This document shows, piece by piece, positions 286 to 22,528 of a stretch of DNA of 33,920 bases (the first letter of the stretch is position 1; each line of letters opens with the position of its first letter). The position numbers and the translations under genes are program-made. Where the stretch lies: assembly GCA_964628675.1 (NCBI GenBank), contig CAZVPQ010000001.1, positions 1 to 33,920 on the forward strand. The letters are read 5' to 3'. Below the pieces are notes generated by a model. That model was given only the letters and a program-made list of their open reading frames with translations. It was not told where the DNA came from and made no database searches. Source of the DNA: an uncultured Hyphomicrobiales bacterium (lineage in GTDB: Bacteria > Bacteroidota > Ignavibacteria > Kapaibacteriales > UBA2268).

Positions 286-3200
286 TTGAATTTATTGAAA
301 ATGTCAATAGCAAAGGTTAGTAATGCAATTAGCCAAGATTTTCCATTAATTCAAAGTTATATAGAATATTATGCTAAAGTAAATCCCGATTCGATTGCAT
401 TAGCTTCTGAAGAAGAAACTCTTACATACTTTGAGTTAAATAAGTCTGCAAACAATTTAGCAAATTATCTTATTTCGCAAGGAATAGGTCCTGAAAAAAC
501 TGTAGGTATTTTTTTAAACCCTTCTATTAATTTAGTTATAGCTGTTATAGCTGTATTAAAAGCCGGAGGGGTTTATGTCCCAATAGCTCCGACTCTTCCT
601 AAAAAAAGGGCTGAATATATATTAAAAGATTCAAAAGCAAAAATTTTACTAACAGATTTTAATTTGAAAAGTAAATTCTCTTTTGATTCTGTCATTTCTG
701 TTGCTGTTGACAATAATTCCTCAAATGAAATACTTACTAATCCAAAATATTCTGCTAATGAGAGTAATGCGGCATTTATTATTTATACATCAGGTTCAAC
801 CGGGAAGCCGAAGGGCGTAGTAATTGAACATAGGAATTTGTCCTATTATATTAAGTGGTATATCAAGAATATTTTCCAAAAAATGCAAGTTGATTTGCCT
901 TTAACCTCATCTATGAGTTTTGCCGCCGCTGTTACTCAATTTTATTCTTCATTAGTTTTAGGTAGAACACTTCATATATTAAATCCCGATTTGTTAAGAC
1001 AACCCGACGATCTTTTTGAATGGTATAATATCAATCACGATTTTGGTTTATATTGCGTTCCAACTCTATGGGAAGAATTAATTAATTATGCAGAAATTAA
1101 TAACAAGTCAAAGAAATTAAAAAGCCCGAAATGTGTTTTTCTTTCCGGCGAAGCAGTTTCGAATAGTTTGGTTAAGAGAACTTATAATTTATTTCCTAAT
1201 ATACAACTTTGGAATTTATATGGACCAACCGAAGCTACTGCTAATATTAGTGCAGGATTGTTATCTAATGATAAAGAAGTTGATTTGGGCGAAGTGATTG
1301 AAGGTAGTAAATTATTTATTCTGAATGACAATTTAGAGAAAATCGGGATTAATGAAACCGGTGAAATTTATATTGCCGGTGATGGTATTGCACGGGGGTA
1401 TCTCAATTTGCCGAGATTAACAGGGCAATATTTTTTCAATCATCAGTTCAACGACGGTCAAACATTACGATTATATAAAACCGGGGATTTGGCTAAATAT
1501 GATGAAAATAATAAAATAATATTTTTAGGCAGAAAAGATAGTCAGATAAAAATTAATGGCTATCGTATTGAACTAAGTGAAATTGAGAATATTTTGCTTC
1601 AACATTATGCGATTAGACAGACTGTTGTTATTAAAAAATCACAAGGCACAAATAATCAATTAATTGCTTATATTGTTGTTGATAAATCTAAAAGCATAAT
1701 CATTAACGATGTAAGAGATTATCTAAAAGAGCAATTGCCTGATTATATGATGCCTAATGTTATTGTTTTCTTGGATTCTTTTCCAAAATTAAAAAACGGC
1801 AAGATAAACCGCAAAAAATTGCCTCAACCCGGTATTCAAAGGCCCGATTTACGATATTCTTATGTCCCGCCGGGCAATGATTTGGAAAAAGAGCTTGTTG
1901 CAATTTGGGAGGATGTTCTCGGATATGCAGGATTAGGAATAAATGATAATTTCTTTGACCTTGGTGGAAATTCTCTTAAAATTATATCCATAATTTATAG
2001 AATTAATGGAAAGTTTAATGTAAAAATACCATTTAGATATTTCTTTAAATATCAAACTCCTTATAAATTAGCTAAAATTCTAAAAAATGAAGAAATTCAA
2101 GACAGAACGATAAATTTAGAAATCAAGAAAGCAATAAGTCCCTCATATAGCTATCCTTTATCCGTAAATCAAGAGAGCTTATGGTTTATTATGCAATCTA
2201 TTCCTAATAAATCCTTATATAATATTTTGCTTTCCATTGAGATGAAAGGCGAATTTAATTTATCATATTTACAACTATCATTAGAAGATTTAACAAAAAA
2301 ACATAAGCAATTAAATGCTGTTTTCAATAATATTGACGGTGAGTTAGTTTGTAGAATTAAAGAGAATAATTATATAGGTATTGAGTTTTTTGATTTGTCT
2401 AATATTGTTTCTAATGAGCAAATTAAATCGTCAATAGAAGATATACAAAACAGCGAACTACAATATATTTTTGATTTGGAAACAGGACCATTATATAAAT
2501 TCAAAGTGATAAAAGTTAATAAAAATCGACATATACTATTAGTGCTTATTCATCATATTATTTTCGACGGCTGGTCAGTAAATGTTTTTGTAAAAGAGTT
2601 GTCCGATTTATATAGTACCCTATTGAATAATAGTGAAGAAAATATTCAGGATTTAGATATTCAATTTACAGATTATGCTCATTGGCAAAAAGAGAATATA
2701 GATAGTTCTTATTATGCTCGAATGCTCAAATATTGGCAAGAAAAATTAAAAAATTCAAACTTTGTTTTGGATTTCCCTGCTGATTTTGCAAGACAAAAAA
2801 ATCAAACATTTAATGGGAATTATAAAAAAGTATTTATTAATAAAGATGTTCAAGAAAAAATTTGGAAATTTAATAAGAAAAATAATTTAACTCCTTTTAT
2901 GACTTTTCTTTCCCTGTTCAAATTATTATTATTTAAATATACAAAACAAAATGATATTCTTGTCGGCTGTCCCGTTGCCAATAGAAATCATAAAGAAGTT
3001 GAGAATTTAATTGGTTATTTTGTCAATACTATTATTATAAGAACAAATTTATCTGATGAATTAACTTTTAATGATTTACTATCGGAAATTAAAGAAACAA
3101 CTATTGAATCTCTTGACAATCAAGCATATCCTTTTGCTAAATTAGTAGAAAATCTCAATATTGAACGATCAGCAAGCATAAGCCCTGTGTTTCAAGTAAT

Positions 3201-5394
3201 GTTTGCTTATCACGATGCATTTTTGGATACGCAAGCAAAAGATAATATTTCATTTTCAGTTAGAGAAATTCATAATCCTGCCGCAAAGTTTGATTTAGTT
3301 TTGGAATTAGAAGATATTGGGAGTGGGCTTGAATTAAGATTAACTTATAATAGTGATTTGTTTAAAGAATCTACTATTAATAGACTGCTAAGTCAATATC
3401 AACATTTATTATCAAGCGTAATAAAAAATACGACCAAGCAACTTTCTGAATATTCACTAATTGATGAAAAACTAATTCTTGCAAAATATCAAGAGTTAAA
3501 TAAAACGCAAGCCGATTATTCAAGGAACAAAGGAATACATCAGTTATTTGAAGAGCAGGCAGTTAAAACTCCGAATTCAATTGCTCTTATATTTGAAGAC
3601 AAAAAAATTAGTTACAATGAATTGAATACACAAGCTAACAAATTAGCAAGATATATTTTGACAAAAAATGTTAATCGTAAAAGTCCAATTGGCGTTCAAA
3701 TGGAAACCTCAGAAAAAGTGATTATTTCATTGTTGGCAATTTTAAAGATAGGCAGTCCTTATATACCATTAGACCCTTATTATCCGAAAGATAGAAATAA
3801 ATATATCATTGAACATTCGGGGGTTGAATTAATCATAACCGACGACAACTATTGTGATACACTGTCAAATCTTGATATAACAATCTTAAATATAGATAAA
3901 CAAGAAGAATCAACTTCGTCTTTTTCAGATAACAATATTTCTCTTGATGATTTCTCATCTAATGATTTAGCTTATATTATTTATACATCTGGTTCAACAG
4001 GAAACCCAAAAGGTGTTATGGTTTCGCACCAACCGGTTTGTAATTATTTACAATGGATGCAAAGAACTTTTCCGATGAATGAAGTTGATAAAATATTAAA
4101 TAGAACTTCAATTAATTTTGACATATCTGTCTGGGAAATATTTTTGCCTATAATTTGCGGGGCTAAACTTGTTTTAGCACGAAAAGATATTCTGCAAGCT
4201 CCGGAAAGTCTTTATGAATTGATAAAGAATGAGGGGATTACAAATTTGCAATTTGTACCATCTTCATTAAAAATATTTTTGGATTCAGGTTTGCTTTCTT
4301 CTTGTAAATCAATAAAGAGAATTTTTTCAGGCGGAGAAAAACTTTCAATAAAATTACAAAATCAAGTTTCTTCTGAATTTGACGGTGAATTAATTAATTT
4401 TTACGGTCCGACTGAAGCAACGATTTATGCGACCTATTGGGAATGCCAAAGAGATTCAAAATTAAGTTATGTCCCAATAGGAAAGCCTATTTCAAATGCT
4501 GAAGTTTATGTTTTAGATGACAATTTAAAAGCTTTGCCACAAGGCATTGTTGGCGAATTATATATTGGTGGAGAAGTTTTGGCAAAAGGATATTATGATT
4601 CTCCTGAATTAACAGAAAAGAGTTTCATTCAGAGTCCTTTTGAGCAACATAAAACATTATATAAAACAGGTGATTTGGTTAAATTGTCAGATGACGGTAA
4701 TATAGAATTTCTCGGTAGAGTTGACAACCAAGTCAAAGTTAGAGGTTATAGAATTGAACTTGAAGAAATAGAATATTATTTAATAAGCCACCATAAAATC
4801 AAACAGGCTGTTGTTATCATACGAGAAGATATTGATAGTGATGTTAGAATAGTTGCTTATCTTATACCGCAAAATAGCAACCTGCCAAATGAAAACGAAT
4901 TAAGAAGCTATCTTAAAGAAAAATTACCATCTTATATGATACCATCATTTTTCATATCAATAGATTCAATTCCTTTTTTAGCAAATGGCAAACTAAATAT
5001 TAATGCTCTTCCGTCTATAAAAAGCATTACGATTGGGAAAACAAGAAATAATTATAATAATAAATACGAAGAAATGATTGCTGAAATATGGAAAGTAGTT
5101 TTAGGAACTGATAATTTTAAACCCGATGATAATTTCTATGAGGTTGGCGGTCATTCATTGTTAATGGTTAAAGTGCAAAATTTAATACAAGAAAAATTAA
5201 ATCTTAAAGTTTCAGTGGTTGATTTATTTCAATATCCTAACATACAATCATTAGCAAACTATTTTATTGAAAAATATAAAACTAAAGGTCATTTAAACTC
5301 TGATATAATGAAAAGAGTGGCGATGCGGAAAAAAGTATTAACTCCTAAAATTAAAAAAATAATTGAAAAGTATAATCATGACAAATCTAAATGA
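286..5394 (+). CDS. Non-ribosomal peptide synthetase, two modules: A-T-C-A-T (loading module plus one elongation module)
   Basis: A1 (~nt 358-1830): IIYTSGSTGKPKG, NLYGPTEAT, YKTGDL, GRKDSQIKINGYRIEL, NGKINRKKL. T1 (~1873-2085): FFDLGGNSL. C (~2149-3465): HHIIFDGWS. A2 (~3538-5016): IIYTSGSTGNPKG, NFYGPTEAT, YKTGDL, GRVDNQVKVRGYRIEL, NGKLN. T2 (~5062-5265): FYEVGGHSL. Position 286 is a TTG; the ATG at 301 (MSIAKV...) is the more likely start. The C-terminal ~40 aa are strongly basic, which fits a docking tail. Confidence 0.95.
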   Translation: MNLLKMSIAKVSNAISQDFPLIQSYIEYYAKVNPDSIALASEEETLTYFELNKSANNLANYLISQGIGPEKTVGIFLNPSINLVIAVIAVLKAGGVYVPIAPTLPKKRAEYILKDSKAKILLTDFNLKSKFSFDSVISVAVDNNSSNEILTNPKYSANESNAAFIIYTSGSTGKPKGVVIEHRNLSYYIKWYIKNIFQKMQVDLPLTSSMSFAAAVTQFYSSLVLGRTLHILNPDLLRQPDDLFEWYNINHDFGLYCVPTLWEELINYAEINNKSKKLKSPKCVFLSGEAVSNSLVKRTYNLFPNIQLWNLYGPTEATANISAGLLSNDKEVDLGEVIEGSKLFILNDNLEKIGINETGEIYIAGDGIARGYLNLPRLTGQYFFNHQFNDGQTLRLYKTGDLAKYDENNKIIFLGRKDSQIKINGYRIELSEIENILLQHYAIRQTVVIKKSQGTNNQLIAYIVVDKSKSIIINDVRDYLKEQLPDYMMPNVIVFLDSFPKLKNGKINRKKLPQPGIQRPDLRYSYVPPGNDLEKELVAIWEDVLGYAGLGINDNFFDLGGNSLKIISIIYRINGKFNVKIPFRYFFKYQTPYKLAKILKNEEIQDRTINLEIKKAISPSYSYPLSVNQESLWFIMQSIPNKSLYNILLSIEMKGEFNLSYLQLSLEDLTKKHKQLNAVFNNIDGELVCRIKENNYIGIEFFDLSNIVSNEQIKSSIEDIQNSELQYIFDLETGPLYKFKVIKVNKNRHILLVLIHHIIFDGWSVNVFVKELSDLYSTLLNNSEENIQDLDIQFTDYAHWQKENIDSSYYARMLKYWQEKLKNSNFVLDFPADFARQKNQTFNGNYKKVFINKDVQEKIWKFNKKNNLTPFMTFLSLFKLLLFKYTKQNDILVGCPVANRNHKEVENLIGYFVNTIIIRTNLSDELTFNDLLSEIKETTIESLDNQAYPFAKLVENLNIERSASISPVFQVMFAYHDAFLDTQAKDNISFSVREIHNPAAKFDLVLELEDIGSGLELRLTYNSDLFKESTINRLLSQYQHLLSSVIKNTTKQLSEYSLIDEKLILAKYQELNKTQADYSRNKGIHQLFEEQAVKTPNSIALIFEDKKISYNELNTQANKLARYILTKNVNRKSPIGVQMETSEKVIISLLAILKIGSPYIPLDPYYPKDRNKYIIEHSGVELIITDDNYCDTLSNLDITILNIDKQEESTSSFSDNNISLDDFSSNDLAYIIYTSGSTGNPKGVMVSHQPVCNYLQWMQRTFPMNEVDKILNRTSINFDISVWEIFLPIICGAKLVLARKDILQAPESLYELIKNEGITNLQFVPSSLKIFLDSGLLSSCKSIKRIFSGGEKLSIKLQNQVSSEFDGELINFYGPTEATIYATYWECQRDSKLSYVPIGKPISNAEVYVLDDNLKALPQGIVGELYIGGEVLAKGYYDSPELTEKSFIQSPFEQHKTLYKTGDLVKLSDDGNIEFLGRVDNQVKVRGYRIELEEIEYYLISHHKIKQAVVIIREDIDSDVRIVAYLIPQNSNLPNENELRSYLKEKLPSYMIPSFFISIDSIPFLANGKLNINALPSIKSITIGKTRNNYNNKYEEMIAEIWKVVLGTDNFKPDDNFYEVGGHSLLMVKVQNLIQEKLNLKVSVVDLFQYPNIQSLANYFIEKYKTKGHLNSDIMKRVAMRKKVLTPKIKKIIEKYNHDKSK

Positions 5395-8300
5395 AGTTGA
5401 ATTTGATCAACAAATAGCTATTGTAGGTATGGCTTGCCATCTCCCCGGAGCTAAAAACACAGAAGAATTCTGGAATAATTTGATAAACGGTGTTGAATCA
5501 ATTTCAACATTTACAGATGAAGAATTATTGGAAGCGGGCGTTGAACCTGAATTAATTCAATCACCAAATTATGTAAAGTCACGAGGGATTATTAATGGTG
5601 CAGAATATTTTGATGCATCTTTCTTTGGTTTTACTCCTCGCGAAGCCGAATTAATGGACCCACAACATAGGGTATTCCTCGAATGCGCCTGGCACGCTCT
5701 CGAAGATGCCGCTTATAATCCTGAAAAATCAAATGCCCGTATTGGAGTTTATGGTGGGACAGGAACACCATGGCATCTTTTCCAAGCTAATATGAATCCC
5801 GAAGTTAAAAAATTTGCGAGCGGAACTTCTATTGTTACAAGTAATGATAAAGATTATGTTGCAACAAGAGTTTCCTATAAATTAAATTTAACCGGTCCGA
5901 GCGTTAATGTTCAGTGTGCTTGTTCTACTTCAATGGTTGCGGTAATTTTAGGAATGAATAGTTTATTAAATTATCAGTGCGATATGGTACTTGCCGGAGG
6001 TTCGACAATAGAACTACCTGAAAAAAAAGGATATATATATCAACAAGGAGGACTTGAATCCCCTGACGGTCATTGCCGTACTTTTGACGAAGGAGCTAAT
6101 GGCACTGTATTTAGTCGAGGTGCTGGAGTTGTATTGATAAAAAGATTAAACGATGCTATCAAAGACGGAGATAATATTTATGCCGTAATAAAAGGTGGTG
6201 CAATTAATAATGATGGAAATAAAAAAGTAGGTTTTACAGCTCCAAGTATTGAAGGACAAATTGAAGTTATTACGGAAACTATTGAATTAGCTGATATAAA
6301 ACCTGAAACAATAAGTTATGTGGAAGCCCACGGTACTGCAACTCAAATTGGCGACCCAATCGAAGTATCCTCTTTGATCCAAGCATTCGAGCAATTTACA
6401 GACAAAAAACAGTTTTGTGCAATAGGGTCAGTTAAAACAAACATAGGACATACTGACTCTGCATCAGGAGTATCATCTCTGATTAAAGCGGCTTTGTCAT
6501 TAAAAAATCGCAAAATCCCCGCATCATTGAATTATTACAAACCAAATCCCCAGATTGACTTTGAAAACAGTCCTTTTTTCGTTAATACGGAACTTAGAAA
6601 ATGGATTCCTAACGGTTCTCCTCTAAGAGCTTTGGTTAATTCGTTTGGTGTTGGTGGCACCAATGCTTGCGTTGTACTCGAAGAAGCACCGGATATCAAA
6701 AGCGATGATATAGATATTCCGAATAAATTGCTTGTGCTATCGGCAAAATCAAGAGAAGCATTAGAGCAAAGCAAAAATAATCTTGCAAATTATATTGGAG
6801 ACAAGCAAAATGTTAATCTTAATGATTTAGTTTATACTTATCAAATCGGAAGGAAATATTTTAATAACAGAGGATTTTTGACTTTTAAGAATAGAGATGA
6901 GCTTCTTGAGAAATTGAATAATGAAAACAGCCTGCAAGTGAATCTTCTGGATAAGGAAGATAAACCTATTGTATTTATGTTCCCAGGGCAAGGCAATCAA
7001 TATGTTAATATGGGGCTTGAACTCTATAATAATGAAAAGGTTTTTAAAGATGCCGTTGATGAATGTTGCAAAATCATTCTTGAAGAGTTCGGATTTAATT
7101 TAAAAGATATTATTTATCCTAATAACGAAAATTATAATCTCGCAATTGAAAAAATCAATCAAACTAAATACACTCAGCCCGCATTATTTGTTATCAGTTA
7201 TGCACAAGCAAAATTATTAATGTCTTGGGAAATTGAACCTGATGTTATGATTGGGCATAGCGTTGGCGAGTATGTAGCCGCTTGTATTTCAGGTGTTTTT
7301 TCTTTGAGAGATGCGGTTAAAGCAATTACAAAAAGAGGCGAACTGATACAAAGTTTGCCGGGAGGCTCTATGTTAGCTATATTGCTGTCCAAAGACGAAG
7401 TCCAACCTTTTTTGTCTTCGACAGTTGAAATTGCCGCGATTAATAATCCTTCGTTAACAGTTGTTGCCGGACCTGACGAAGATATTGATAAATTAATCGA
7501 AGAATTAAGCAGCAAAAAGATATTCAATAAAAGATTATCTACTTCTCATGCTTTCCATTCCCAAATGATGGAAGCTATTATGCCCGAGTTTGAAAAATAC
7601 TTTTCTAATATTGATTTGCATCCACCACAAATACCGATTATTTCCACTGTAAGCGGTGATACAATGGCAGAGCAACAAGCACTTGATATACATTATTGGG
7701 TTCAGCATGTTAGAAAAGCAGTTGTGTTTGCTTATGCGGCAAAAACTTGTATTGATGATAAACCTTATGTATTTATAGAAGTAGGTCCCGGACAGTCTTT
7801 GGAATCTGCTGTGAAAAGACAATTAGATAGAGATTCCGAACATTCTGTTATCAGCACAATGCCATCTGCCAATGACGAGATTCCCGATTTGGAATATTTG
7901 ACAACTGCATTGGGACGACTTTGGATTTCAGGAGTTAGTATTTCTTGGCAAAATTATTATAAAGAACAAAATCGCAAAAGGATTTCCTTGCCGGGCTATC
8001 CTTTTGAAAGAAAACCTTATTCAATCGATTTTTCTAAAAATAAAGACATTAAAGTAGAAAAAGCTAATCAAAAAGAATCTGATATTGGAAAATGGTTTTA
8101 CTTGCCATCTTGGGCTAGGTCTTCAAGTTTAGATTTATTGATGAATGATCAAGATTATGAAAATAAGAATTGCTGGTTAATCTTTAACGATGACTTAGGT
8201 TTGGCGAAAACTATCAGTGAACAACTTAAAAACGATGGAAAAGATATAATCAACATATTTGCTTCCGATAAATATCATCAAGAAAATGAGAATACATTTT

Positions 8301-10948
8301 ATATTGAAGCCTCAAATTCTGAACAATATATTAAAGTTTTAGATGAATTAATTAAGCAAAACAGAAAACCTCAAATGATAATTCATTTATGGAATATTAC
8401 TCAACTTTCCGAAAAAGAATTTGATTTTGACGAAGTCGAGACAATAAAAACAATGAATTTTTACAGTATTATTTATACAGAACAAGCATTAATCAAGTTA
8501 AATCTTTTTGATGATGTGCACATTTCAGTTGTTGCAAATGGTACTTTTGATATAACAGGTGAGACGGTATTTTGTCCCGAAAAAGCACTTGCTATTGGAC
8601 CTTGCCGCGTAATAGGCAAAGAATTTCCATCTATGCAGGCAAGATTTATTGATATTACTATTCCTGATGTTGATATTTCAATGAAATATTTAGCTAACAA
8701 TCTAATTAAAGAGACTTTATATAAAGCTAATGAAACCGTTGTAGCATATAGAAAACATCATAGATGGAAGGAAGAATTTAATCAAGTCTATTTAGAAGAA
8801 TCAGATGATAATATTAGAAAACTAAAAGATAATGGAGTTTATTTAATTACAGGCGGTCTCGGAGGTCTCGGTTTATTGTTTTCAAAATTTATTGCAGAAA
8901 CAGTTAAATCAAAACTGATTTTAACTTATTATTCTGATATTCCCAAAAGAGAAGAATGGCAGAATTGGTTAGATACTCACGACAATAATAATTCTACGAG
9001 TGAAAAGATTAATGGGATTATTGAGTTAGAATCACTTGGTGCAGATGTAATGATTTATCAAGTTGATGTAAGCGATTTACAAGGAATGAAAAATTTAGTT
9101 CAAGAAGCGGAAGCTAAATTTGGTACGATAAATGGAATTATTCATTCGGCTGGTATTGCCGGCGGTGGAATTATTTCATTGAAAACACCTGAAATGGCTA
9201 ACCAAGTCTTAGACCCAAAAATTAAAGGAACTATTGTGCTTGATTCAATTTTTGATAAGAAAGAATTGGATTTTATGATTTTATTTTCTTCGATTACTGC
9301 AATTTTGGGAGAAGCCGGTAGAGTTGATTATTGTTCTGCAAATTCATTTTTAGATGCTTATGCTTATTATAAAAATCAAGAAGGACACACTTACACAAGC
9401 TCAATAAACTGGGGGCAATGGGGTGATGTAGGTATGGCTGTTCGTTGGGAAGAATCTCAAGCAAAATCAAAAGCTGAGCTTTTAAAAAAAGCAAAATCAA
9501 TTAATAAAAATGATAAAGCCAAAGAAATTATTCAACTTGTAAAAAAAGAAAATAATCTATCAATTTATCAAGTCAATTTAGACCCTGTTGAGGATTGGGA
9601 AGTAAACAGTCACTTTATTTATGGAATACCTACTGCTGTCGGAACAACATTTATTGATATTCTAAATAAGTATGCTAATTCAATTAATAGCAATGGGTAT
9701 AACATAATTTCAGATTTGTATTTTATGACACCATTAATGTTTCCCGATAGCAAAGAAAGAAAAGTTAGACTTTATGTTAAAAAGCAGAACGACAAATATC
9801 AATGTTCGATAAAGAGTCAGGAGATTGAAAAAGATAGCGATAATGATTCTTGGACTGAACATTGCGTTGCTAATATTCAGGTCGAAAGTCAACAAACAAA
9901 AGAAATTATAGATATTGAAAGTTTAAAAAATAAATTTGGCAATAATGTTCAGAGTGAGTCATTGACAAGGGTGGTAAAAGGAAACGGTGATATTCCACTC
10001 TTGGAATTAGGAGAAAGATGGAATTGCGAAAAACAAATTCATATAGGAGAAAACGAATGGTTGGCTGAAATCGAATTAGACAAAAAATATAATGACGATT
10101 TTATAAATTCTATTTTGCATCCTGCAATGCTTGATGTTGCTACTATGCTGGGCATTCAACACATTACGGATAATCAATTTTTGCCATTTCATTATTCGAG
10201 AATTAAAATCTATTCTTCGATACCTGCTAAGATATTTAGCCATATATACTTTACTAATAAATCAAATGATGATAGCGAAACTCTTTCTTTTGAAATAACA
10301 ATTTTAGATACGGCAGGTAATATTATTTTAGAAATTGAAAATTATACTTTGAAAAAAGTCAAAGAAGATATGCAAATTGGCGAGAGCAAAGACAAAATAA
10401 TAAATTTATCAAATAAATCAAAAAATACTATAACACATAATTTGAAATCAAAAGATATTTTCATTGAAGAAGGTAAAGAAGCATTTAAACGATTTTTATC
10501 GAAAAATAATATTGAGCAAATTGTTATTTCAACAAGTGATTTACATCAATCTATTATTGACAGTTTTCCTACTATAAAATCCGCTGAAGACGATGAAGAT
10601 GCAAGCAAGAAACAGAGTTCGGCGTATGAAAGACCTGCTTTATCTACTCCTTACGTTGAGCCGACAAATGAAATCGAAAAAGCAATTTCGGAAATTTGGC
10701 AATCTATACTCGGGATAGATAAAATCGGTATAAATGATGATTTCACTGAACTCGGGGGTAATTCTTTGCTTGCTATTCAAACTCTTGCTAATATTTCGGA
10801 TACGTTCCAAGTTGAAATGCAAGCCGAAGATTTTTTCAAGAATTCAACTGTTAAAGGTTTAGCGGAAGTAATTCTTGAATTATTGCTTTCTTTAACCAAT
10901 GAAGACGATTTGGAGGAATTAATTTCTTCTATTGACGATGAGGATTAA
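5363..10948 (+). CDS. Type I polyketide synthase module: KS-AT-KR-DH-carrier (KR precedes DH; the carrier has a PCP-like GGNSL motif)
   Basis: KS (~5411-6691): DPQHRVFLE, VQCACSTS (active-site Cys), EAHGTAT, NIGHTDSASG. AT (~6965-7852): FPGQGNQY, GHSVGE, HAFH (malonyl-type motif). KR (~8825-9397, preceded by a psiKR-like region from ~8084): ITGGLGGLG, HSAGIAGGG, YCSANSFLD. DH-like double hot-dog (~9560-10357): NSHFIYGIP and LHPAMLDVA. Carrier (~10664-10882): DDFTELGGNSLLAIQ. The C-terminus is acidic (NEDDLEELISSIDDED). Position 5363 is TTG; the ATG at 5378 (MTNLNEV) is the more likely start and overlaps the upstream gene by 17 nt. Confidence 0.93.
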   Translation: MKSIIMTNLNEVEFDQQIAIVGMACHLPGAKNTEEFWNNLINGVESISTFTDEELLEAGVEPELIQSPNYVKSRGIINGAEYFDASFFGFTPREAELMDPQHRVFLECAWHALEDAAYNPEKSNARIGVYGGTGTPWHLFQANMNPEVKKFASGTSIVTSNDKDYVATRVSYKLNLTGPSVNVQCACSTSMVAVILGMNSLLNYQCDMVLAGGSTIELPEKKGYIYQQGGLESPDGHCRTFDEGANGTVFSRGAGVVLIKRLNDAIKDGDNIYAVIKGGAINNDGNKKVGFTAPSIEGQIEVITETIELADIKPETISYVEAHGTATQIGDPIEVSSLIQAFEQFTDKKQFCAIGSVKTNIGHTDSASGVSSLIKAALSLKNRKIPASLNYYKPNPQIDFENSPFFVNTELRKWIPNGSPLRALVNSFGVGGTNACVVLEEAPDIKSDDIDIPNKLLVLSAKSREALEQSKNNLANYIGDKQNVNLNDLVYTYQIGRKYFNNRGFLTFKNRDELLEKLNNENSLQVNLLDKEDKPIVFMFPGQGNQYVNMGLELYNNEKVFKDAVDECCKIILEEFGFNLKDIIYPNNENYNLAIEKINQTKYTQPALFVISYAQAKLLMSWEIEPDVMIGHSVGEYVAACISGVFSLRDAVKAITKRGELIQSLPGGSMLAILLSKDEVQPFLSSTVEIAAINNPSLTVVAGPDEDIDKLIEELSSKKIFNKRLSTSHAFHSQMMEAIMPEFEKYFSNIDLHPPQIPIISTVSGDTMAEQQALDIHYWVQHVRKAVVFAYAAKTCIDDKPYVFIEVGPGQSLESAVKRQLDRDSEHSVISTMPSANDEIPDLEYLTTALGRLWISGVSISWQNYYKEQNRKRISLPGYPFERKPYSIDFSKNKDIKVEKANQKESDIGKWFYLPSWARSSSLDLLMNDQDYENKNCWLIFNDDLGLAKTISEQLKNDGKDIINIFASDKYHQENENTFYIEASNSEQYIKVLDELIKQNRKPQMIIHLWNITQLSEKEFDFDEVETIKTMNFYSIIYTEQALIKLNLFDDVHISVVANGTFDITGETVFCPEKALAIGPCRVIGKEFPSMQARFIDITIPDVDISMKYLANNLIKETLYKANETVVAYRKHHRWKEEFNQVYLEESDDNIRKLKDNGVYLITGGLGGLGLLFSKFIAETVKSKLILTYYSDIPKREEWQNWLDTHDNNNSTSEKINGIIELESLGADVMIYQVDVSDLQGMKNLVQEAEAKFGTINGIIHSAGIAGGGIISLKTPEMANQVLDPKIKGTIVLDSIFDKKELDFMILFSSITAILGEAGRVDYCSANSFLDAYAYYKNQEGHTYTSSINWGQWGDVGMAVRWEESQAKSKAELLKKAKSINKNDKAKEIIQLVKKENNLSIYQVNLDPVEDWEVNSHFIYGIPTAVGTTFIDILNKYANSINSNGYNIISDLYFMTPLMFPDSKERKVRLYVKKQNDKYQCSIKSQEIEKDSDNDSWTEHCVANIQVESQQTKEIIDIESLKNKFGNNVQSESLTRVVKGNGDIPLLELGERWNCEKQIHIGENEWLAEIELDKKYNDDFINSILHPAMLDVATMLGIQHITDNQFLPFHYSRIKIYSSIPAKIFSHIYFTNKSNDDSETLSFEITILDTAGNIILEIENYTLKKVKEDMQIGESKDKIINLSNKSKNTITHNLKSKDIFIEEGKEAFKRFLSKNNIEQIVISTSDLHQSIIDSFPTIKSAEDDEDASKKQSSAYERPALSTPYVEPTNEIEKAISEIWQSILGIDKIGINDDFTELGGNSLLAIQTLANISDTFQVEMQAEDFFKNSTVKGLAEVILELLLSLTNEDDLEELISSIDDED

Positions 10949-10993: not shown

Positions 10994-12145
10994 ATGGCTG
11001 ATTTATCAAATCGTTTGGCAAATTTATCTCCTGAGAAAAGGGCTTTGCTTTTACAAAAGCTTAAATCTCAAAAAAATGGAGATTTGAAACCAAGAGCAAA
11101 TATAAATAAAGGCACATTCGTCCCCGGAAAAGATGAGAATTTTAGTTGCGAGATTATCCAACCCGGAAATTTTACTAACTTGGATTTTCGCAGGGCAAAT
11201 TTAACAGCACCTAATCCTTGGCAAATTCAAATTAAAGCCAAAGCCGCAAGTTTGAATTTCAGAGATTTAATGATTGCTATGAATATGTATCCCAAGACTC
11301 CGGGAGTACCTTCCGTTATGGGGTCGGATTATTCAGGCATTGTAAGCGCTGTGGGAAATAATGTAAAGAATTTTAAAATTGGTGATGAAGTTATTGCTTT
11401 GTCCGCCGGAAATTTTTTAGAAAATGGAAGTATCGAAGAGAATAGCCATTTTTGTGGTTATTTCAATGGTTCCGAAAAACAAGCTGTACATAAACCTAAG
11501 AATATTAATTTTGAGGAAGCGGCTGGTATTCCTACTGTATTTCTTACGAGTTACTATTCATTGCTTAATGTAGCCAAATTACAACTGAATGAAAAAGTAT
11601 TGATACATACAGCCACCGGAGGTATAGGATTATCAGCTTTACAAATTGCCAAATGGATAGGAGCCGAAATATTTGCTACTGCCGGTTCAATTGAGAAACG
11701 TGATTATCTTAAATCATTAGGTATTAAAAACCCGATGGATTCACGTTCGACAGATTTTGCTCGAAAAGTTATGGAATTGACTAATAACGAAGGTGTAGAT
11801 GTTGTACTTAATACTCTTTCCGGTGAAGCAGGAAATATGGGTTTAGAGATTTTATCTGATTTTGGTTGTTTTTTGCAAATTGATAAAAAAGATATTGCGC
11901 AAAATAATAAGTTAGAGCTTAGATATTTTAACAAAGGTATAAGCTATACGGCTATTGATTTATCACTATTTTTAAAACAACCCGATAGATTGAATAAAAT
12001 TTTTAATGAAATAATAAATCATATAAGAGAAGAACATTTTAAACCGATAAAATATAAAGCATATTCTATTTGGGATTTGGGCGAAGCACTGACTTATATG
12101 TCCCGTTCACAACATATTGGTAAGATTGTTTTAAAATATGATTAA
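10994..12145 (+). CDS. Stand-alone enoyl reductase (MDR / quinone-oxidoreductase-like PKS_ER type) with an N-terminal docking-like extension
   Basis: MDR/ER motifs: SLNFRDLM, GSDYSGIVSAVG, IGDEVIAL, VLIHTATGGIGLSALQIAKWIGAEIFATAGS (NAD(P)H fold). The first ~30 aa (MADLSNRLANLSPEKRALLLQKLKSQK) are not part of the ER fold and resemble the N-terminus of the next NRPS. Confidence 0.85.
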   Translation: MADLSNRLANLSPEKRALLLQKLKSQKNGDLKPRANINKGTFVPGKDENFSCEIIQPGNFTNLDFRRANLTAPNPWQIQIKAKAASLNFRDLMIAMNMYPKTPGVPSVMGSDYSGIVSAVGNNVKNFKIGDEVIALSAGNFLENGSIEENSHFCGYFNGSEKQAVHKPKNINFEEAAGIPTVFLTSYYSLLNVAKLQLNEKVLIHTATGGIGLSALQIAKWIGAEIFATAGSIEKRDYLKSLGIKNPMDSRSTDFARKVMELTNNEGVDVVLNTLSGEAGNMGLEILSDFGCFLQIDKKDIAQNNKLELRYFNKGISYTAIDLSLFLKQPDRLNKIFNEIINHIREEHFKPIKYKAYSIWDLGEALTYMSRSQHIGKIVLKYD

Positions 12146-12182
12146 TCTTACTTACAATTTATAAAATAAAATATTAGAATAG

Positions 12183-15100
12183 ATGAAAAAAGAATTAGCA
12201 AATCGGTTGTCATCAATGACGCCGGAAGAAATAAGGTCTCTTCTGAAAAGAAATCCAAAAAAATCTTTGGATAAGGCAAAAGAAAAATTAAAAATGGAAA
12301 GAAATGAGAAAGAGAAATATCCACTTTCAAGCACTCAGGAAAGGACTTGGTTTTTATGTCAATTAAATTCGGGAAGCCCAATAAATAATAATGCTTTTGC
12401 CATTAAAATGAAATCAAAAACCAGAGTAAAACCGGAAATCTTTGAACAAGCTCTGAAATTACTTGCCGATAGACATGAAATTTTACGGACATCATTTCAT
12501 AGTAGGAAAGGACGACCATTTCAAAAAATTCATAAATCCGTTGATTTCAAAGTTGAATATTTAGATTTACAGCATTTATCCAAGAGAAATAGAGAGGATA
12601 AAATTATTGGGGAAGCGGTCAAAGAAGCACATAAAATATTTGATTTATCTAAATGCCCATTGCTTAATTTTAAAATATTACATATTGAAAAAAATGAATA
12701 TGTCTATTTGATAACTCCACATCATATTATTTCCGATGGCTGGTCAAATGCTATTTTTTCAAGAGAATTTATACAGATATATACATCTTTGGTAAATAAT
12801 ACATCATTAAATCTTCCTGAATTGAACTACCAATATGTTGATTATGTCAATTGGGAAAAACATTGGTTACAAAGTGATAAATATAAAGAATACTTAAACT
12901 ATTGGAAAAAACAACTTGAAAATATAGAAGTTTTAGAGTTCCCGAAAGATTTCCAAAGACCAAATATTATGTCCACTGATGGCGCGATGGAAAGCATAGT
13001 TCTTGATGATAATTTAGCAAAAGAATTAAAAGATTTTAGCCAGCAAAGAGCTGTAAATTTATTTTCTACGCTTTTATCAATATTTAATATTCTTCTCTAT
13101 AAATATACAGGGCAAAATAATATTACAATCGGTACTCCGATGGCTAATCATAATAAAAATGAATTCCAAAATGTTATGGGAATGTTTTTAAATACTTTGC
13201 CTATACCTACTGTAATCAATGAAAATAATACATTTGTGGAATATATAAATCAAACAAGTAAAATTAGTCAGGGGGCATTTATTCATCAGGAGTTACCTTT
13301 TGACAAACTTATAGAAGAATTAAAACCTCCACGTGATATGAGCAAGCACCCTTTGTTCCAAATTATGTTTGTTTTTCAGAATATTCCTTCTCTTTATAAG
13401 ACCAATGGTATTGATATGATACCATTGAAAATCGATTATCATTTATCCAAATTCGATATTGATTTATGGGTCGAAGAAGCTGACAATAAAATGATAATAT
13501 CTCTTAAATATTTTACTGATTTATTTAAAAAATCCACTATTCGAAGGTTTTTGAAGCACTATCAAATTTTAATGAATGATGCAGTTTCAAACCCAAATAA
13601 AATGATTGTTGATTTGAATTATATTCCTAATGATGAAAAAATATTTTTGTTATCAAATGCTTCAAAACAAAAATTTAAAAATAGTGATAAAACGTTTATT
13701 GATTATTTTGAAAAGCAAGCAAATTCGCATAAAGAAAATTTAGCAGTACAATATCTTGAAAAAACAGTTTCTTATCAAGAGTTGAATGCTCTTGCAAATT
13801 CATTAGCTCATTATCTCAGAAAAAAAGGTATAAAAAAGGGAGATATAGTAGGTCTTATGACAAAGCGTTCCGAAAAGTCAATTATTGCTATGATAGGAAT
13901 AATGAAATCCGGTGCCGCGTATTTGCCTATTGATTCATCTACTCCTGCCGAAAGATTAAAATATATTATTGATAATTCTAAAATTAAAACAATTCTTACA
14001 GAGAAAATATTTAGTAAGAAGTTAAGAGATTATGAAATAGAACAAGTCCTTATTGATGAAAATTGGCAAAAAATCATTAATGAAGATAAAAATAATTTGG
14101 ATATAGATATTAATCTTTCCGATTTAGCTTATATTATCTATACATCAGGAACTACCGGAATGCCAAAAGGTGTTTGTATTGAACATAGGCAATTACTTAA
14201 TTATACTTTGTCAATATGGAGCAAGATGAAACTCCCGGGTATTAACCGTTTTGCAACCGTTTCATCATTGTCGGCGGATTTGGGCAATACAATGATTTTC
14301 CCTGCTCTCTCCAATGGTGCCTCGGTTAATATCATAGATGATGATTACCTGACAAATTTAGAACTTTTTTCGTCTTATATTGCAGGAAATAAAATTGATT
14401 GTATTAAACTGACTCCTTCACATCTCAATAGTTTACTGACGAGTGAAAATAAATCTGTTTTGCCTGAGAAACTTTTAGTTTTAGGAGGGGAAACATTGTC
14501 TTGGCAATTAATTGACAGGATCAGAAAACTTAAACCCGAATTACGAATCATAAATCATTATGGTCCAACAGAAACTACAACCGGTGTTTTGACTTATGAA
14601 ATCCCATTGTCGAATTATAAGAAAAAAGAACAATTTTCAGTTCCGATTGGATTCCCACTTGATAATTCGCAAATTTATATTTTAGATAAATATTTGAAAG
14701 TGGTCCCTATCGGAGTTAAAGGCGAAATATATATTGGAGGTGAAAATCTTGCAAATGGGTATATGAATAATTCGGAGCTAACGCAAAAATATTTTATTCA
14801 AAATCCTTTTAACATAAATGAAAGATTATATAAAACGGGAGATTTTGCGAAGTACCTTGATGACAACACAATTCTTTTTCTTGGTAGGAAAGACAAACAA
14901 GTTAAAATACGTGGATATAGAGTTGAATTAGAAGGAATTGAACAAATAATTTCTAATCATCAAGATATTATGCAGGTTGTTTTATTAAAGAAAAGTAAAA
15001 CCGAACAGCTGATTGCATACATTAAGTTTAAAGAAAACACAATAATAACAGAAGAAAGTTTAAGGAATTATCTAAAACCCAAACTGCCTACATATATGAT

Positions 15101-16316
15101 TCCCGATATTTTCATTTTTGTGGACGAGATTCCGATTACGAAAAATGGGAAAATTAATTTTGATAAATTGATTGCAATTGGCGAGAGTAAATCTGTTGAC
15201 GAACCATCTTCTCAAGCTCCGAGAGATAATTTAGAGTTGGAAATAACAAACGTTTGGAAAAAAATATTAAGCATAAATAAAATTGGTATAAATGATAACT
15301 TTTTTGAAATAGGTGGTCAATCTTTGATTGCTGTTGAATTATTTTCCGAACTACATAAGAAATTTGATATTGATTTGCCACTGTCAGTTTTATTTGAAAA
15401 CGGAACTATTAAAGATTTAGCAGAAATTATCAGGTCAAAAAATAAATATAGTAATAACTCTCCATTGGTAACAATTCAAGAAGGGGATAATAAAAGTCCG
15501 ATATTTTTAGTCCACCCTGCCGGTGGAAATGTGTTAAGTTATTATGATTTTAGTCAATCAATGGGCAAATCTTATCCCGTTTACGGCTTGCAATCAACTT
15601 TGGAATTGGATTGGAATTCTCCTGATTTCTCCATTAATAAGATGGCAAGATATTATTTAGACGTGATATTATCTTCGGGATTTAAACCTCCTTTTATTTT
15701 CGGTGGCTGGTCAATGGGTGCATTAGTTGCTTATGAAATGGCAATTATATGCCAAAAAGAAAATATTTCAATGCCATTAGTTATTGTAATCGACCAAGTA
15801 GCACCTGAAAATGACAAAGTTAAAAATTATCGACAAATCAATGAATTAGATCGTCTAACAATTTTTGCAGATAAAGTAGGGCATCTAATCAAACACAAAC
15901 TTGATATAACAAGAGAGCAATTAAACAATCTTACTGCAAAGGAAACTGCGAATTTGTTTTTAAATGAATTTAAAAAACATAATCTTGTGCCAGCTGATGT
16001 GCAATTAGAAAAATTCAAAGATTTTCTTGATATTATGATAAAACATAATGAAGTAACGATGGATTACAATCCCGAAATATACAATGGCAAGGTTCTAATT
16101 ATTAAAGCAGAGCATTCATTTGAAATTGATTCTTCATTGAAAAAAGCTTCGGAATTATTTAGACCAAGAGCCAAAGATTTAGGTTGGCAAGTATATATTA
16201 AGAATAATGTAAATATCATTCTTGTACCGGGCGATCATATTTCTATGATGACAAAACCTAATATCAATATTTTAGCAGAAAAACTAAAACATTGGATTGA
16301 AGATAATAATTTATAA
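12183..16316 (+). CDS. Non-ribosomal peptide synthetase termination module: (docking)-C-A-T-TE; A-domain code resembles Asp
   Basis: C (~12315-13622): HHIISDGWS. A (~13695-15173): IIYTSGTTGMPKG, NHYGPTETT, YKTGDF, GRKDKQVKIRGYRVEL, NGKINFDKL. T (~15216-15437): FFEIGGQSL. TE (~15481-16307): FLVHPAGGN, GGWSMGA (GxSxG), VPGDHISMM. The hand-extracted specificity code is DLTKVGHTGK. Confidence 0.95.
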   Translation: MKKELANRLSSMTPEEIRSLLKRNPKKSLDKAKEKLKMERNEKEKYPLSSTQERTWFLCQLNSGSPINNNAFAIKMKSKTRVKPEIFEQALKLLADRHEILRTSFHSRKGRPFQKIHKSVDFKVEYLDLQHLSKRNREDKIIGEAVKEAHKIFDLSKCPLLNFKILHIEKNEYVYLITPHHIISDGWSNAIFSREFIQIYTSLVNNTSLNLPELNYQYVDYVNWEKHWLQSDKYKEYLNYWKKQLENIEVLEFPKDFQRPNIMSTDGAMESIVLDDNLAKELKDFSQQRAVNLFSTLLSIFNILLYKYTGQNNITIGTPMANHNKNEFQNVMGMFLNTLPIPTVINENNTFVEYINQTSKISQGAFIHQELPFDKLIEELKPPRDMSKHPLFQIMFVFQNIPSLYKTNGIDMIPLKIDYHLSKFDIDLWVEEADNKMIISLKYFTDLFKKSTIRRFLKHYQILMNDAVSNPNKMIVDLNYIPNDEKIFLLSNASKQKFKNSDKTFIDYFEKQANSHKENLAVQYLEKTVSYQELNALANSLAHYLRKKGIKKGDIVGLMTKRSEKSIIAMIGIMKSGAAYLPIDSSTPAERLKYIIDNSKIKTILTEKIFSKKLRDYEIEQVLIDENWQKIINEDKNNLDIDINLSDLAYIIYTSGTTGMPKGVCIEHRQLLNYTLSIWSKMKLPGINRFATVSSLSADLGNTMIFPALSNGASVNIIDDDYLTNLELFSSYIAGNKIDCIKLTPSHLNSLLTSENKSVLPEKLLVLGGETLSWQLIDRIRKLKPELRIINHYGPTETTTGVLTYEIPLSNYKKKEQFSVPIGFPLDNSQIYILDKYLKVVPIGVKGEIYIGGENLANGYMNNSELTQKYFIQNPFNINERLYKTGDFAKYLDDNTILFLGRKDKQVKIRGYRVELEGIEQIISNHQDIMQVVLLKKSKTEQLIAYIKFKENTIITEESLRNYLKPKLPTYMIPDIFIFVDEIPITKNGKINFDKLIAIGESKSVDEPSSQAPRDNLELEITNVWKKILSINKIGINDNFFEIGGQSLIAVELFSELHKKFDIDLPLSVLFENGTIKDLAEIIRSKNKYSNNSPLVTIQEGDNKSPIFLVHPAGGNVLSYYDFSQSMGKSYPVYGLQSTLELDWNSPDFSINKMARYYLDVILSSGFKPPFIFGGWSMGALVAYEMAIICQKENISMPLVIVIDQVAPENDKVKNYRQINELDRLTIFADKVGHLIKHKLDITREQLNNLTAKETANLFLNEFKKHNLVPADVQLEKFKDFLDIMIKHNEVTMDYNPEIYNGKVLIIKAEHSFEIDSSLKKASELFRPRAKDLGWQVYIKNNVNIILVPGDHISMMTKPNINILAEKLKHWIEDNNL

Positions 16317-16333
16317 ACAAAATTAATACTACG

Positions 16334-17383
16334 ATGGAAAAAACATCTAATAATAAAGATAAAACAAAAGAATATGCTTCGATGATTGACAATTTTATTT
16401 ATGGCAATTGGCTCACAAGTATAACTTATACCTTTGCCGAATTAGCAATCGCTGATATTTTATATAAAAATCCTTTGGATATTGATGAGATTAGCAAAAG
16501 GACTGATACAAATCCGAAATTACTTAAAAGATTTCTCAGATGTGCCGCTAATCTTGGTTTTGTCAGAACAAGCGAAAACAAATATTACATTGCACCAATG
16601 GGAGATTTGTTAAGAACTGAGCATCCTCTCAGCAGAAGGGACGCCGCAAGACTCAACGGTGCTAATTATCGCTATCAGCCTTGGGGTTATCTTGTTGACA
16701 TTCTAAGGCAAGGCAATAGTCAATCGTTCTCACCAACTTTTGAAAAAGGTAGTCTCAATTATCTATCCGATAAGCCTGAATTACTTGAAGTATTTCATAA
16801 TGCTATGACAAGAATAACCGAAGAAGAAAATTTGCCGATTGTGTCTTCTTATGATTTTTCAAAGTTTAAACATATTGTAGATATTGGTTGTGGTCTCGGT
16901 AGTTTTCTAAAAACTATTCTCAGAGAAAATGAGCATATTAAAGGCACAATGTTTGATTTGGAATCGACATTAAATATGGAAGATAATATTATTGAAGATG
17001 ATTTAAAAGATAGACTTGATAAGGTATCAGGCGATTTTTTTAATGACACTATTCCTAATGCTGATTTATATATTTTGAAAAATGTAATTCATAATTGGAA
17101 TGAAGAAAACGCTTTAAAATTATTGAAAAATATTTATACTTCTATGTCTTCAGATAAAAATAATGTTGCAGATAAACGATTGCTTATAATTGAAAATACT
17201 ATTAAAGATAATGATGATTATAATATTGCAAATTGGATGGACTTGAATTTTATGATTTTAGTTGATGGTGCCGAAAGGTCTGTTAACGACTATAAATCTT
17301 TTGTTCAGGAAGCCGGTTTTAAAATATCAAATGTTATTCCTACTCCAACAGGGAGAGATATTATTGAATTAACAATAGCATAA
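16334..17383 (+). CDS. SAM-dependent O-methyltransferase (COMT-like / Methyltransf_2 family)
   Basis: An N-terminal dimerisation-like region is followed by the SAM motif VDIGCGLGSF, then DLYILKNVIHNWNEENALKLLKN (catalytic His context) and a C-terminus typical of small-molecule O-MTs. It lies 17 nt downstream of the NRPS stop. Confidence 0.85.
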   Translation: MEKTSNNKDKTKEYASMIDNFIYGNWLTSITYTFAELAIADILYKNPLDIDEISKRTDTNPKLLKRFLRCAANLGFVRTSENKYYIAPMGDLLRTEHPLSRRDAARLNGANYRYQPWGYLVDILRQGNSQSFSPTFEKGSLNYLSDKPELLEVFHNAMTRITEEENLPIVSSYDFSKFKHIVDIGCGLGSFLKTILRENEHIKGTMFDLESTLNMEDNIIEDDLKDRLDKVSGDFFNDTIPNADLYILKNVIHNWNEENALKLLKNIYTSMSSDKNNVADKRLLIIENTIKDNDDYNIANWMDLNFMILVDGAERSVNDYKSFVQEAGFKISNVIPTPTGRDIIELTIA

Positions 17384-17390
17384 AATTTTT

Positions 17391-18122
17391 ATGAAAAATA
17401 TTCTTGAATATTCGACAATTTTGGAAATGGAACTTGATGGAGAAAGTATTAAGTCGGGATTGCACATCGTTTTCGAAAACAATTTTTACAAGAAAATAAA
17501 TCCGAATGAATATCTTCATAAAGATGAATTAATTGAATTTGATAAAATTTCGAGTGATATTGTAAAGCATAATTTTTGTGCCGGTCGATACTCCGCAAAG
17601 AAATCAATTAGTTTGATTACTGGCGAGCAAGATTTAAAAGAGATGATTATTGAGCATGGAGTTTTCGGTTTTCCTATTGTCAAAAACTCAGAGAATTTAC
17701 AAGTTTCGATAGCTCATACCGATAGTTCTGCAGTAGCGATTTGTTTTAACGAAAAATCCCCGATGGGCATAGATATAGAAATTATAAAAGAAAAACAAAT
17801 TGATGTTATTGAAACACAGCTGACTCAATATGAGAAAGAATTAAGTAAGGATTTGGATATAAGCACAAATATTTTCTTCCATCAATTATGGACAAGCAAA
17901 GAAGCACTTGGCAAGGCAATAAAAACCGGTTTTACAATTCCAATGCTATTGTTTGAGGTTAATTCTATTGAAGACAATAAACAATTTATGCTTTTATTCT
18001 TCAAACATTTTGAACAATTTAAAGCGGTTTCTCTAAAGATTAATGAGAACTATATATTATCTATTGTGCTTCCGAAAAGTATTGATATTAATAATTTATT
18101 TTCCATAAATCAAAATTATTAA
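17391..18122 (+). CDS. 4'-phosphopantetheinyl transferase (Sfp type)
   Basis: Motifs: MGIDIEIIKE (G-x-D-x-E) and WTSKEALGKA ((W/F)xxKE(A/S)xxK). The 243-aa size fits Sfp-type PPTases. It is the last gene of the plus-strand operon. Confidence 0.8.
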   Translation: MKNILEYSTILEMELDGESIKSGLHIVFENNFYKKINPNEYLHKDELIEFDKISSDIVKHNFCAGRYSAKKSISLITGEQDLKEMIIEHGVFGFPIVKNSENLQVSIAHTDSSAVAICFNEKSPMGIDIEIIKEKQIDVIETQLTQYEKELSKDLDISTNIFFHQLWTSKEALGKAIKTGFTIPMLLFEVNSIEDNKQFMLLFFKHFEQFKAVSLKINENYILSIVLPKSIDINNLFSINQNY

Positions 18123-22527: not shown

Positions 22528-22528
22528 T

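Follow-up and report, generated by a model that had tools for sequence, protein, structure and literature searches.

A divergent NRPS-PKS hybrid cluster with a split-off enoyl reductase in a Kapabacteria-like bacterium and its uncharacterised cross-phylum family

Homologation of amino acids to gamma-amino acids, by transfer from a nonribosomal peptide synthetase (NRPS) to a polyketide synthase (PKS), is an established biosynthetic strategy (PMC13096860). In ClbB of the colibactin pathway, a C-A-T-KS-AT-KR-DH-ER-T protein, Ala and malonyl-CoA are converted into 4-aminopentanoate (PMC5490422), i.e., an NRPS-loaded amino acid undergoes a single malonyl-CoA extension and full reduction to the saturated gamma-amino acid, downstream of an N-acylated residue. 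Modules consisting of KS-AT-KR-DH alone are the type that makes vinylogous amino acids, and the barnesin (brn), syrbactin (syl/glb) and thalassospiramide hybrids likewise homologate an amino acid by KS-KR-DH on the way to short lipo- or acyl-peptides (PMC13096860). Here, we describe a related biosynthetic gene cluster (BGC) in contig CAZVPQ010000001.1 of assembly GCA_964628675.1, an uncultured bacterium of the Kapaibacteriales; the whole 33,920-nt stretch is referred to as the window. Six synthesis genes within it encode A-T-C-A-T (NRPS 1), KS-AT(malonyl)-KR-DH-T (PKS), a stand-alone enoyl reductase (ER), C-A-T-TE (NRPS 2), an O-methyltransferase (OMT) and an Sfp-type 4'-phosphopantetheinyl transferase (PPTase), as assigned from Pfam domains, motifs and solved relatives.

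Compared with ClbB, which was considered by its literature description (PMC5490422) and not by sequence, the window shows the same unusual order of KR before DH(-ER) and the same fully reducing set, namely KR, DH and ER with catalytic residues, the ER being homologous to one located between DH and T. Unlike in ClbB, the ER stands on a protein of its own with a docking-like helix, the two NRPSs and the PKS between them are encoded as three polypeptides, the starter would be a non-amino acid loaded by an A domain instead of a fatty acid loaded by a C-starter domain, and the line ends with TE after one further residue, putatively Asp; the remaining cluster content is also dissimilar. The brn cluster resembles the window in having its own PPTase and transporter, yet it is a trans-AT system with a C-starter (PMC13096860). 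Furthermore, the barnesin, syrbactin and thalassospiramide systems go no further than the enoyl (vinylogous) stage and terminate at a PKS TE or in macrolactams, and none of them possesses the window's loader type, split ER or terminal Asp module. As read from its domains and codes, the cluster is of a known kind, an NRPS-PKS hybrid making a homologated amino acid, and the window adds a new, divergent member whose loader code fits no assigned specificity and whose ER is naturally split.

The pathway that we regard as probable in its entirety leads from a non-amino acid starter through a small amino acid, one malonyl extension saturated by a docked trans ER, and Asp to TE release, a single O-methylation and export by an ABC/HlyD/TolC system. 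The Sfp-type PPTase would prime the four carriers, A1 would place a non-amino carboxylic acid on T1, and C1 would couple this acid to the small residue loaded by A2. KS would then condense the acyl-aminoacyl chain with malonyl, KR and subsequently DH would process the product, and the split ER, docked by its N-terminal helix to the acidic PKS tail, would saturate the double bond, giving 4-aminobutyrate from a Gly or 4-aminopentanoate from an Ala at residue 2. NRPS 2 would add Asp through its C domain, TE would free the product by hydrolysis or possibly by cyclisation, the OMT would add one O-methyl group, probably on a conserved part of the scaffold, and the adjacent ABC/HlyD/TolC system would export the product. 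The predicted scaffold is R-CO-NH-CH(R')-CH2-CH2-CO-Asp, a mono-O-methylated, capped pseudo-tripeptide of roughly 300-450 Da. Gene and domain content, intact catalytic residues, the A-domain codes, the relation of the ER to in-cis PKS ERs, conservation of the cluster family and purifying selection are shown by the sequences, whereas we infer which substrates are used, that the ER docks, that the PKS extends only once, where the OMT acts and that the product is exported. The same collinear four-unit logic had been put forward in a preliminary description of the locus, and domains, motifs, codes and ER homology are all in keeping with it.

At the level of substrate selection, specificity codes were extracted by MAFFT alignment to a GrsA-PheA reference, which returns DAWTIAAICK at positions 235-517. 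All four carrier serines (GGxS) are intact, the three A domains carry the A3/A5/A10 motifs, both C domains have HHxxxDG, and the TE of NRPS 2 has GWSMG and GDH. The loader A1 has the code AATYFSLANK, with Asp235 replaced by Ala; since the amine-anchoring Asp235 is missing, A1 is predicted to activate a non-amino carboxylic acid, probably one common in primary metabolism and possibly a hydroxy-aromatic or keto acid. The A2 code, DIWQFGFIYK, agrees at six of ten positions each with a Gly code (DILQLGLIWK) and a Gln code (DAWQFGLIDK), and its pocket, lined by Trp, Phe, Phe and Tyr, favours a small residue, which A2 probably takes; a Gly or Ala-like residue is the best guess and Gln a possibility. 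A3 reads DLTKVGHTGK; nine of its ten residues agree with the canonical Asp code, which supports activation of Asp and bears out the Asp-like last residue already proposed for the locus. The nearest solved A domains were also considered as a clue to the A1 substrate: module 2 of LgrA, a Gly module, tops the matches of both A1 and NRPS 2 C-A, but was rejected as substrate evidence because the pocket codes are unrelated and the similarity is generic to the backbone. Three further structures, PDB 8xju/8xjy/8xjz, labelled only 'Polyketide synthase' or 'Peptide synthetase', are the best or second-best solved relatives of KS-AT (2.8e-218), NRPS 2 C-A and A1.

In the PKS, KR (aa 1158-1354) precedes a double hot-dog DH (aa about 1400-1670). 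KS retains its Cys and two His, AT has GHSVGE and HAFH, marking malonyl specificity, KR has GGLGGLG and YCSAN, and DH has its His in HFIYG and its Asp in HPAMLD. The catalytic residues of KS, AT, KR, DH and carrier are invariant in all 67 full-length PKSs of the family, which share H(A/G)FH as the malonyl mark; with its residues invariant across this set, DH is no vestige. The carrier is of the peptidyl carrier protein (PCP) type, with GGNS and NRPS PCPs as its PDB relatives, while among solved structures KR resembles MlnE/PksJ, DH resembles CurF/CurK, and KS-AT resembles 8xju/8xjy and CurL.

The split ER belongs to the medium-chain dehydrogenase/reductase (MDR) type, and its best PDB matches are ER domains of PKSs and fatty acid synthases (MAS, CurK, JamJ, SpnB and CurF). 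A cyanobacterial KS-AT-KR-DH-ER-T protein (P0064, 2257 aa) has an in-cis ER at residues 1685-2004, between DH and carrier, to which the split ER is 41% identical; the first ~1680 residues of P0064 are 42% identical to the window PKS. By this double homology, the window has a KS-AT-KR-DH-ER-T module from which the ER has been split off as a gene of its own. Given its PKS-ER structural relatives and its homology to in-cis ERs, the protein is no generic quinone oxidoreductase. All four stand-alone ERs compared share a conserved N-terminal helix, R(I/L)AxLSPExRxxL, the downstream NRPS proteins open with a similar helix, LSxLSPExIKxL, and wherever a cluster contains an ER, its PKS closes with an acidic D(L/I)ExLxSS tail, the last 25 residues of the window PKS having a net charge of -10. 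From these elements we infer that ER and NRPS 2 both dock on the acidic PKS tail.

An ER that is inactive or only partially active on the carrier-bound intermediate would leave an alpha,beta-unsaturated (vinylogous) amino acid in the product, a Michael-acceptor warhead like that of barnesin or the syrbactins. Such an outcome would agree with the chemistry of KS-AT-KR-DH modules cited above, with the existence of a Xenorhabdus relative without ER, and with the location of the ER on a separate polypeptide, whose recruitment may be incomplete. We nevertheless hold it to be decidedly unlikely, as the ER is a close homologue of ERs found in cis between DH and T, its gene stands exactly between PKS and NRPS 2 in four clusters, and the protein combines the conserved docking-like helix with an intact NADPH motif.

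Polyunsaturated fatty acid (PUFA) and enediyne synthases likewise have KR ahead of DH. Were the window PKS, together with its trans ER, to be used iteratively as in these synthases or in LovB/LovC, a longer reduced chain and a product of more than four units would result. Both the KR-before-DH order and the trans MDR ER recall such systems, and the PfaA model TIGR02813 matches the KS-AT region, although below its cut-off. On the other side, KS-AT, with its CurL-like and RhiE-like linkers, is nearest to modular hybrid PKSs, a single PCP-like carrier feeds a canonical downstream C domain, and the ClbB-type module of the same order acts once (PMC5490422), so that iterative use appears very unlikely and one saturated extension remains the preferred reading.

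Tailoring and export add to the proposed pathway. The OMT has an intact SAM site and catalytic His, and its best PDB relatives (6c5b, CalO6, MmcR and DnrK) all methylate aromatic or phenolic small molecules. It is the positional orthologue of the Flavobacterium poyangense OMT (45% identity) despite the different A2 code there (Ser), and its retention across clusters that differ at residue 2 makes a methyl target in the conserved part of the scaffold, the starter or Asp, likelier, probably a starter hydroxyl or a carboxyl. The PPTase, with GIDIE and WTSKEA, is the only Sfp-type homologue found in the metagenome-assembled genome (MAG). The four exporter genes also lie directly beside homologous NRPS-PKS genes in a distant relative (G016), at 24-44% identity, and the block of outer-membrane component (OEP), ABC, C39-ABC and HlyD-like proteins probably exports the product. 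By this synteny, the functional unit would reach past 18122 and through 18088-25987; the extent of 286-18122 given earlier thus holds for the six synthesis genes and leaves out the exporter. A siderophore role was also considered, and no receptor or uptake genes were seen in the window by Pfam.

Several points weigh against the proposed pathway. Collinear use with a single extension is an assumption, and the A1 and A2 codes fit no assignable code, that of A2 standing about equally near to Gln and Gly codes. KR carries neither the LDD nor the Trp stereochemistry motif, so that product configuration and KR/DH compatibility are not readable from motifs, and the sequence fixes neither the mode of release by TE nor the site methylated by the OMT. 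In addition, the Xenorhabdus relative lacks an ER and the Pectobacterium relative has a different MDR type, from which it follows that saturation is not universal in the family.

The window is the whole longest contig of a fragmented MAG (2.5 Mb, 417 contigs, ~84% complete), and its six plus-strand genes (Table 1) are packed co-directionally, with intergenic gaps of 45, 37, 17 and 7 nt and an overlap of genes 1 and 2 by 17-32 nt depending on the PKS start; open reading frame (ORF) listing, Pfam and motifs thereby confirm the gene arrangement and domain string reported before. Domain E-values of 1e-12 to 1e-161 are well outside chance, and all catalytic motifs read from the six translations are intact. 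For gene 1 and the PKS, ATG 301 and ATG 5378 are likelier starts than the TTGs, the gene caller's PKS (P0001) also beginning at 5378. Moreover, an independently assembled Logan contig (L018) is collinear and undisrupted across ~2,750 codons, with the same genes at 67-77% amino acid identity, and comparison of the NRPS and the PKS between the two gives dN/dS of ~0.15 and ~0.09, respectively, at a dS near saturation. The cluster is a real, intact operon under purifying selection.

Table 1. Features of the window, with domain limits in nucleotides (approximate for NRPS 1).
Feature	Position	Strand	Description
Small ORF of the 79-aa family, 3' part	1-186	+	Heads the operon; truncated by the contig start; 61 aa visible
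NRPS 1, A1-T1-C1-A2-T2 (loader and module 2)	286-5394	+	1702 aa; Pfam, motifs, codes; A1 358-1815, T1 1882-2085, C1 2149-3468, A2 3547-4995, T2 5077-5262
PKS, KS-AT-(psiKR)KR-DH-T	5363-10948	+	1861 aa, or 1856 aa from the gene-caller start; KS 5408-6535, AT 6971-7936, KR region 8177-9424, DH about 9560-10372, PCP-like carrier 10682-10873; acidic C-terminal tail
Stand-alone MDR-type ER	10994-12145	+	383 aa; Pfam ADH_N/ADH_zinc_N; ~45-aa docking-like N-terminal helix
NRPS 2, C-A3(putatively Asp)-T-TE	12183-16316	+	1377 aa; Pfam, code, motifs, N-terminal LSPE-type helix; C 12309-13649, A 13707-15152, T 15243-15428, TE 15498-16295
SAM-dependent OMT, PF00891 class	16334-17383	+	349 aa; Pfam Methyltransf_2 with dimerisation domain
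Sfp-type PPTase	17391-18122	+	243 aa; Pfam ACPS, motifs
Four-gene putative exporter, convergent	18088-25987	-	Pfam; TolC-like OEP 18088-19581, ABC 19630-22527, C39-domain ABC 22529-24712, HlyD-like membrane fusion protein (MFP) 24731-25987
1442-aa protein, CoA-enzyme activase type	26883-31211	+	Two BcrAD/BadFG ATPase domains and DUF2229

The small ORF at the head of the operon is 74% identical to its uncut counterpart in L018, an ORF of 79 aa that precedes the NRPS, and ORFs of 95-101 aa occupy the same position in two other loci (L012 and L014), at just 21-25% identity. Pfam gave no family for these small upstream ORFs, and an MbtH-like protein, considered for the one in the window, was dropped for want of a Pfam match. 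At the other end, the PPTase gene (+) and the TolC-like gene (-) converge and share 35 nt at their 3' ends (18088-18122), where no terminator-like hairpin was reported; the promoter/terminator scan gave counts at or close to chance and was uninformative on operon boundaries. The 1442-aa protein just past the exporter has no evident tie to the cluster.

As to the host, MAGs of Candidatus Kapaibacterium/Kapabacteria, the 'Bacteroidetes/Chlorobi group' and Ignavibacteria provide the best named matches to the flanking S41 peptidase, at 58-66% identity, which, together with a GC content of 31.6% in the MAG, upholds the earlier view of an AT-rich host outside the classical producers. The cluster, at 30.8% GC, deviates less from the genome mean in its tetranucleotide profile than the control windows do, just three comparison windows of that size being available, and the MAG has no second NRPS/PKS locus; neither a binning artefact nor a recent transfer is likely. 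Within the host lineage the cluster is rare, occurring in 1 of 24 other genera of the family and in 1 of a phylum-wide sample of 400 other genomes. Such patchiness could be taken as a sign of a decaying or silent relic without a product, an explanation that is barely credible for six open ORFs with intact catalytic residues, dN/dS of 0.09-0.15, native composition and an own PPTase and exporter.

Beyond the host lineage, the KR-DH-T region of the window PKS, used as a query, retrieved a large family of ~1,830-1,860 aa PKSs with KR before DH, present in many Gammaproteobacteria and cyanobacteria; its genera include Flavobacterium, Pectobacterium, Xenorhabdus, Vibrio and Shewanella, and its range covers plant-pathogenic and insect-associated genera. 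The cluster family is defined by a loader without Asp235 and a KS-AT-KR-DH-T PKS followed by C-A(Asp code)-T-TE, all of which are found in the window. The loader code AATY[F/L/Y]S[L/F]ANK recurs in 19 of 19 A-T-C-A-T orthologues, and the split A-T-C genes have AATYFSLANK in Pectobacterium and AAAYFSLANK, with one substitution at position 239, in Xenorhabdus. The terminal Asp code occurs in five of the seven clusters examined (window, ENA, F. poyangense, Pectobacterium and Xenorhabdus), whereas the residue-2 codes of the family fall into two chemotypes, DIWQFG[L/F][I/V]YK and a Ser code.

The closest relative is the Logan contig L018, which begins with a 79-aa ORF, the NRPS and the PKS. Proteins of the F. 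poyangense and ENA clusters are 39-50% identical to those of the window. The F. poyangense cluster (GCA_011751075.1, JAALLN010000015.1) runs 95-aa ORF / A-T-C-A-T / PKS / ER / C-A-T-TE / OMT and shares the gene order, the loader code (AATYYSLANK), the Asp code (DLTKIGHIGK) and the OMT with the window, but has a canonical Ser code, DVWHFSLIDK, in A2. Two ENA contigs (L011/L012) show the order 101-aa ORF / A-T-C-A-T / PKS / ER / C-A-T-TE / B12-binding radical SAM enzyme / OMT-AHSA1, the last two being additions relative to the window; on contig_42519 of ENA ERZ25039479 (L012, 20810-24321), the radical SAM enzyme of 602 aa and the OMT-AHSA1/START-like fusion of 537 aa follow C-A-T-TE, implying additional tailoring in this branch, possibly C-methylation. 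Neither the F. poyangense nor the ENA clusters contain a PPTase, in contrast to the window.

Among the Gammaproteobacteria, the split form of Pectobacterium brasiliense is arranged as A-T-C (divergent) / A / T / PKS / C-A-T-TE / ... / MDR and that of Xenorhabdus bovienii as A-T-C / A-T / PKS / C-A-T-TE / MFS. Like the window, both have the loader code, a closely matching code in the second A domain (DVWQFGLIFK), an Asp code that reads DLTKVGHVGK, and a KR-before-DH PKS at 35-38% identity, and they differ in having NRPS 1 as two or three proteins, no OMT, no PPTase and exporters of the major facilitator superfamily (MFS) or MFP type. In place of the PKS-type ER, P. brasiliense (GCA_022172285.1; L013, 20397-21413) has an ADH_N_2 MDR of the alkenal/one reductase type, and a conserved protein of 208 aa in Pectobacterium and 207 aa in Xenorhabdus belongs to no Pfam family; the Pectobacterium MDR and the 208-aa protein may be a non-homologous stand-in for the ER.

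Two more distant variants, G016 and G135, have a Gly-type residue 2, other terminal codes and no loader. In G135, a complete genome of the same class, the locus (G135:C1, about 1126500-1145400; L016+L017) comprises a PPTase, two ~1,500-aa NRPSs, a homologous 1856-aa PKS and C-A-T-TE; the terminal A code is DILQLGMIWK (Gly), the NRPS proteins have interrupted A domains, seen as split BLAST matches, and no ER homologue was detected in this cluster. G016 encodes a 330-aa ROK-family protein (sugar kinase/regulator type) between the first NRPS and the PKS (L010, 3225-4217 (-); G016:C33, 23225-24217). The seagrass-associated diazotroph Candidatus Celerinatantimonas neptuna carries two paralogous KS-AT-KR-DH-T PKSs (P0043 and P0048) on one 4.13-Mb contig.

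A FastTree phylogeny of the 67 PKSs places the Gammaproteobacteria in one clade and the window on a long branch beside the F. poyangense group, and it nests an Oxalobacteraceae sequence within the metagenomic relatives of the ENA cluster, a position suggestive of inter-phylum transfer. A pattern scan of genome contigs with NRPS 2 was uninformative, its matches being distant ones in a Chloroflexota MAG (31%) and Psychroserpens (23%), and a contig search with the window ER as query gave no matches. On these comparisons, the window is a divergent member of an uncharacterised cross-phylum cluster family and no one-off.

Whether this family, or its enterobacterial version, has already been characterised under another name bears directly on the novelty of the cluster. 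The window would then be a homologue of a known BGC, and the occurrence of the family in the well-studied genera Pectobacterium, Xenorhabdus, Vibrio and Shewanella lends this some plausibility. None of the NCBIfam equivalog models, however, passes its cut-off (SolG 883 vs 2200, AusA 1024 vs 2500, MxcG 730 vs 2300, EntF 653 vs 2400 and PfaA 411 vs 1010). The first four belong to the pathways of solanimycin, aureusimine, myxochelin and enterobactin, respectively. Open-access literature on Pectobacterium, Xenorhabdus, Flavobacterium, Kapabacteria and KS-AT-KR-DH modules yielded no characterised member, and 61% of the PKS/NRPS hybrids surveyed in Xenorhabdus/Photorhabdus are themselves unidentified, so that a known counterpart seems unlikely. 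The flavipulchrin cluster of Pseudoalteromonas, considered as a counterpart, encodes an unrelated heptapeptide lipopeptide. The label 'orphan' in the preliminary description thus stands as far as characterised counterparts in NCBIfam and the literature are concerned, but not in the sense of uniqueness, as the same loader and Asp codes recur in F. poyangense, metagenomic Bacteroidota, Pectobacterium and Xenorhabdus.

A more far-reaching proposal, which we put forward tentatively and do not expect to hold in full, is that the products of the family, across Kapabacteria-like bacteria, Flavobacteriia and Beta-/Gammaproteobacteria, form a hitherto undescribed class of small capped pseudo-tripeptides built from an acid, a gamma-amino acid and Asp, with the starter set by a new A-domain specificity class (AATYxSLANK, no Asp235) and with a Bacteroidota branch that uses a docked split ER. 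In that branch, ER and downstream NRPS, carrying the same type of docking helix, would compete for one acidic PKS tail or alternate on it.

The BGCs of Kapabacteria/Ignavibacteria-type bacteria of the FCB group are essentially unstudied, and here one assembly line, recognisable by its terminal Asp code and by a loader code that is conserved yet unassignable, recurs in at least two phyla. As members occur in the cultivable and tractable F. poyangense, X. bovienii and Pectobacterium, the family product would be identifiable without the uncultured host. Moreover, with the ER in cis, split off with a docking helix, or absent, the family forms a natural series that may serve as a model for trans recruitment to modular PKSs.

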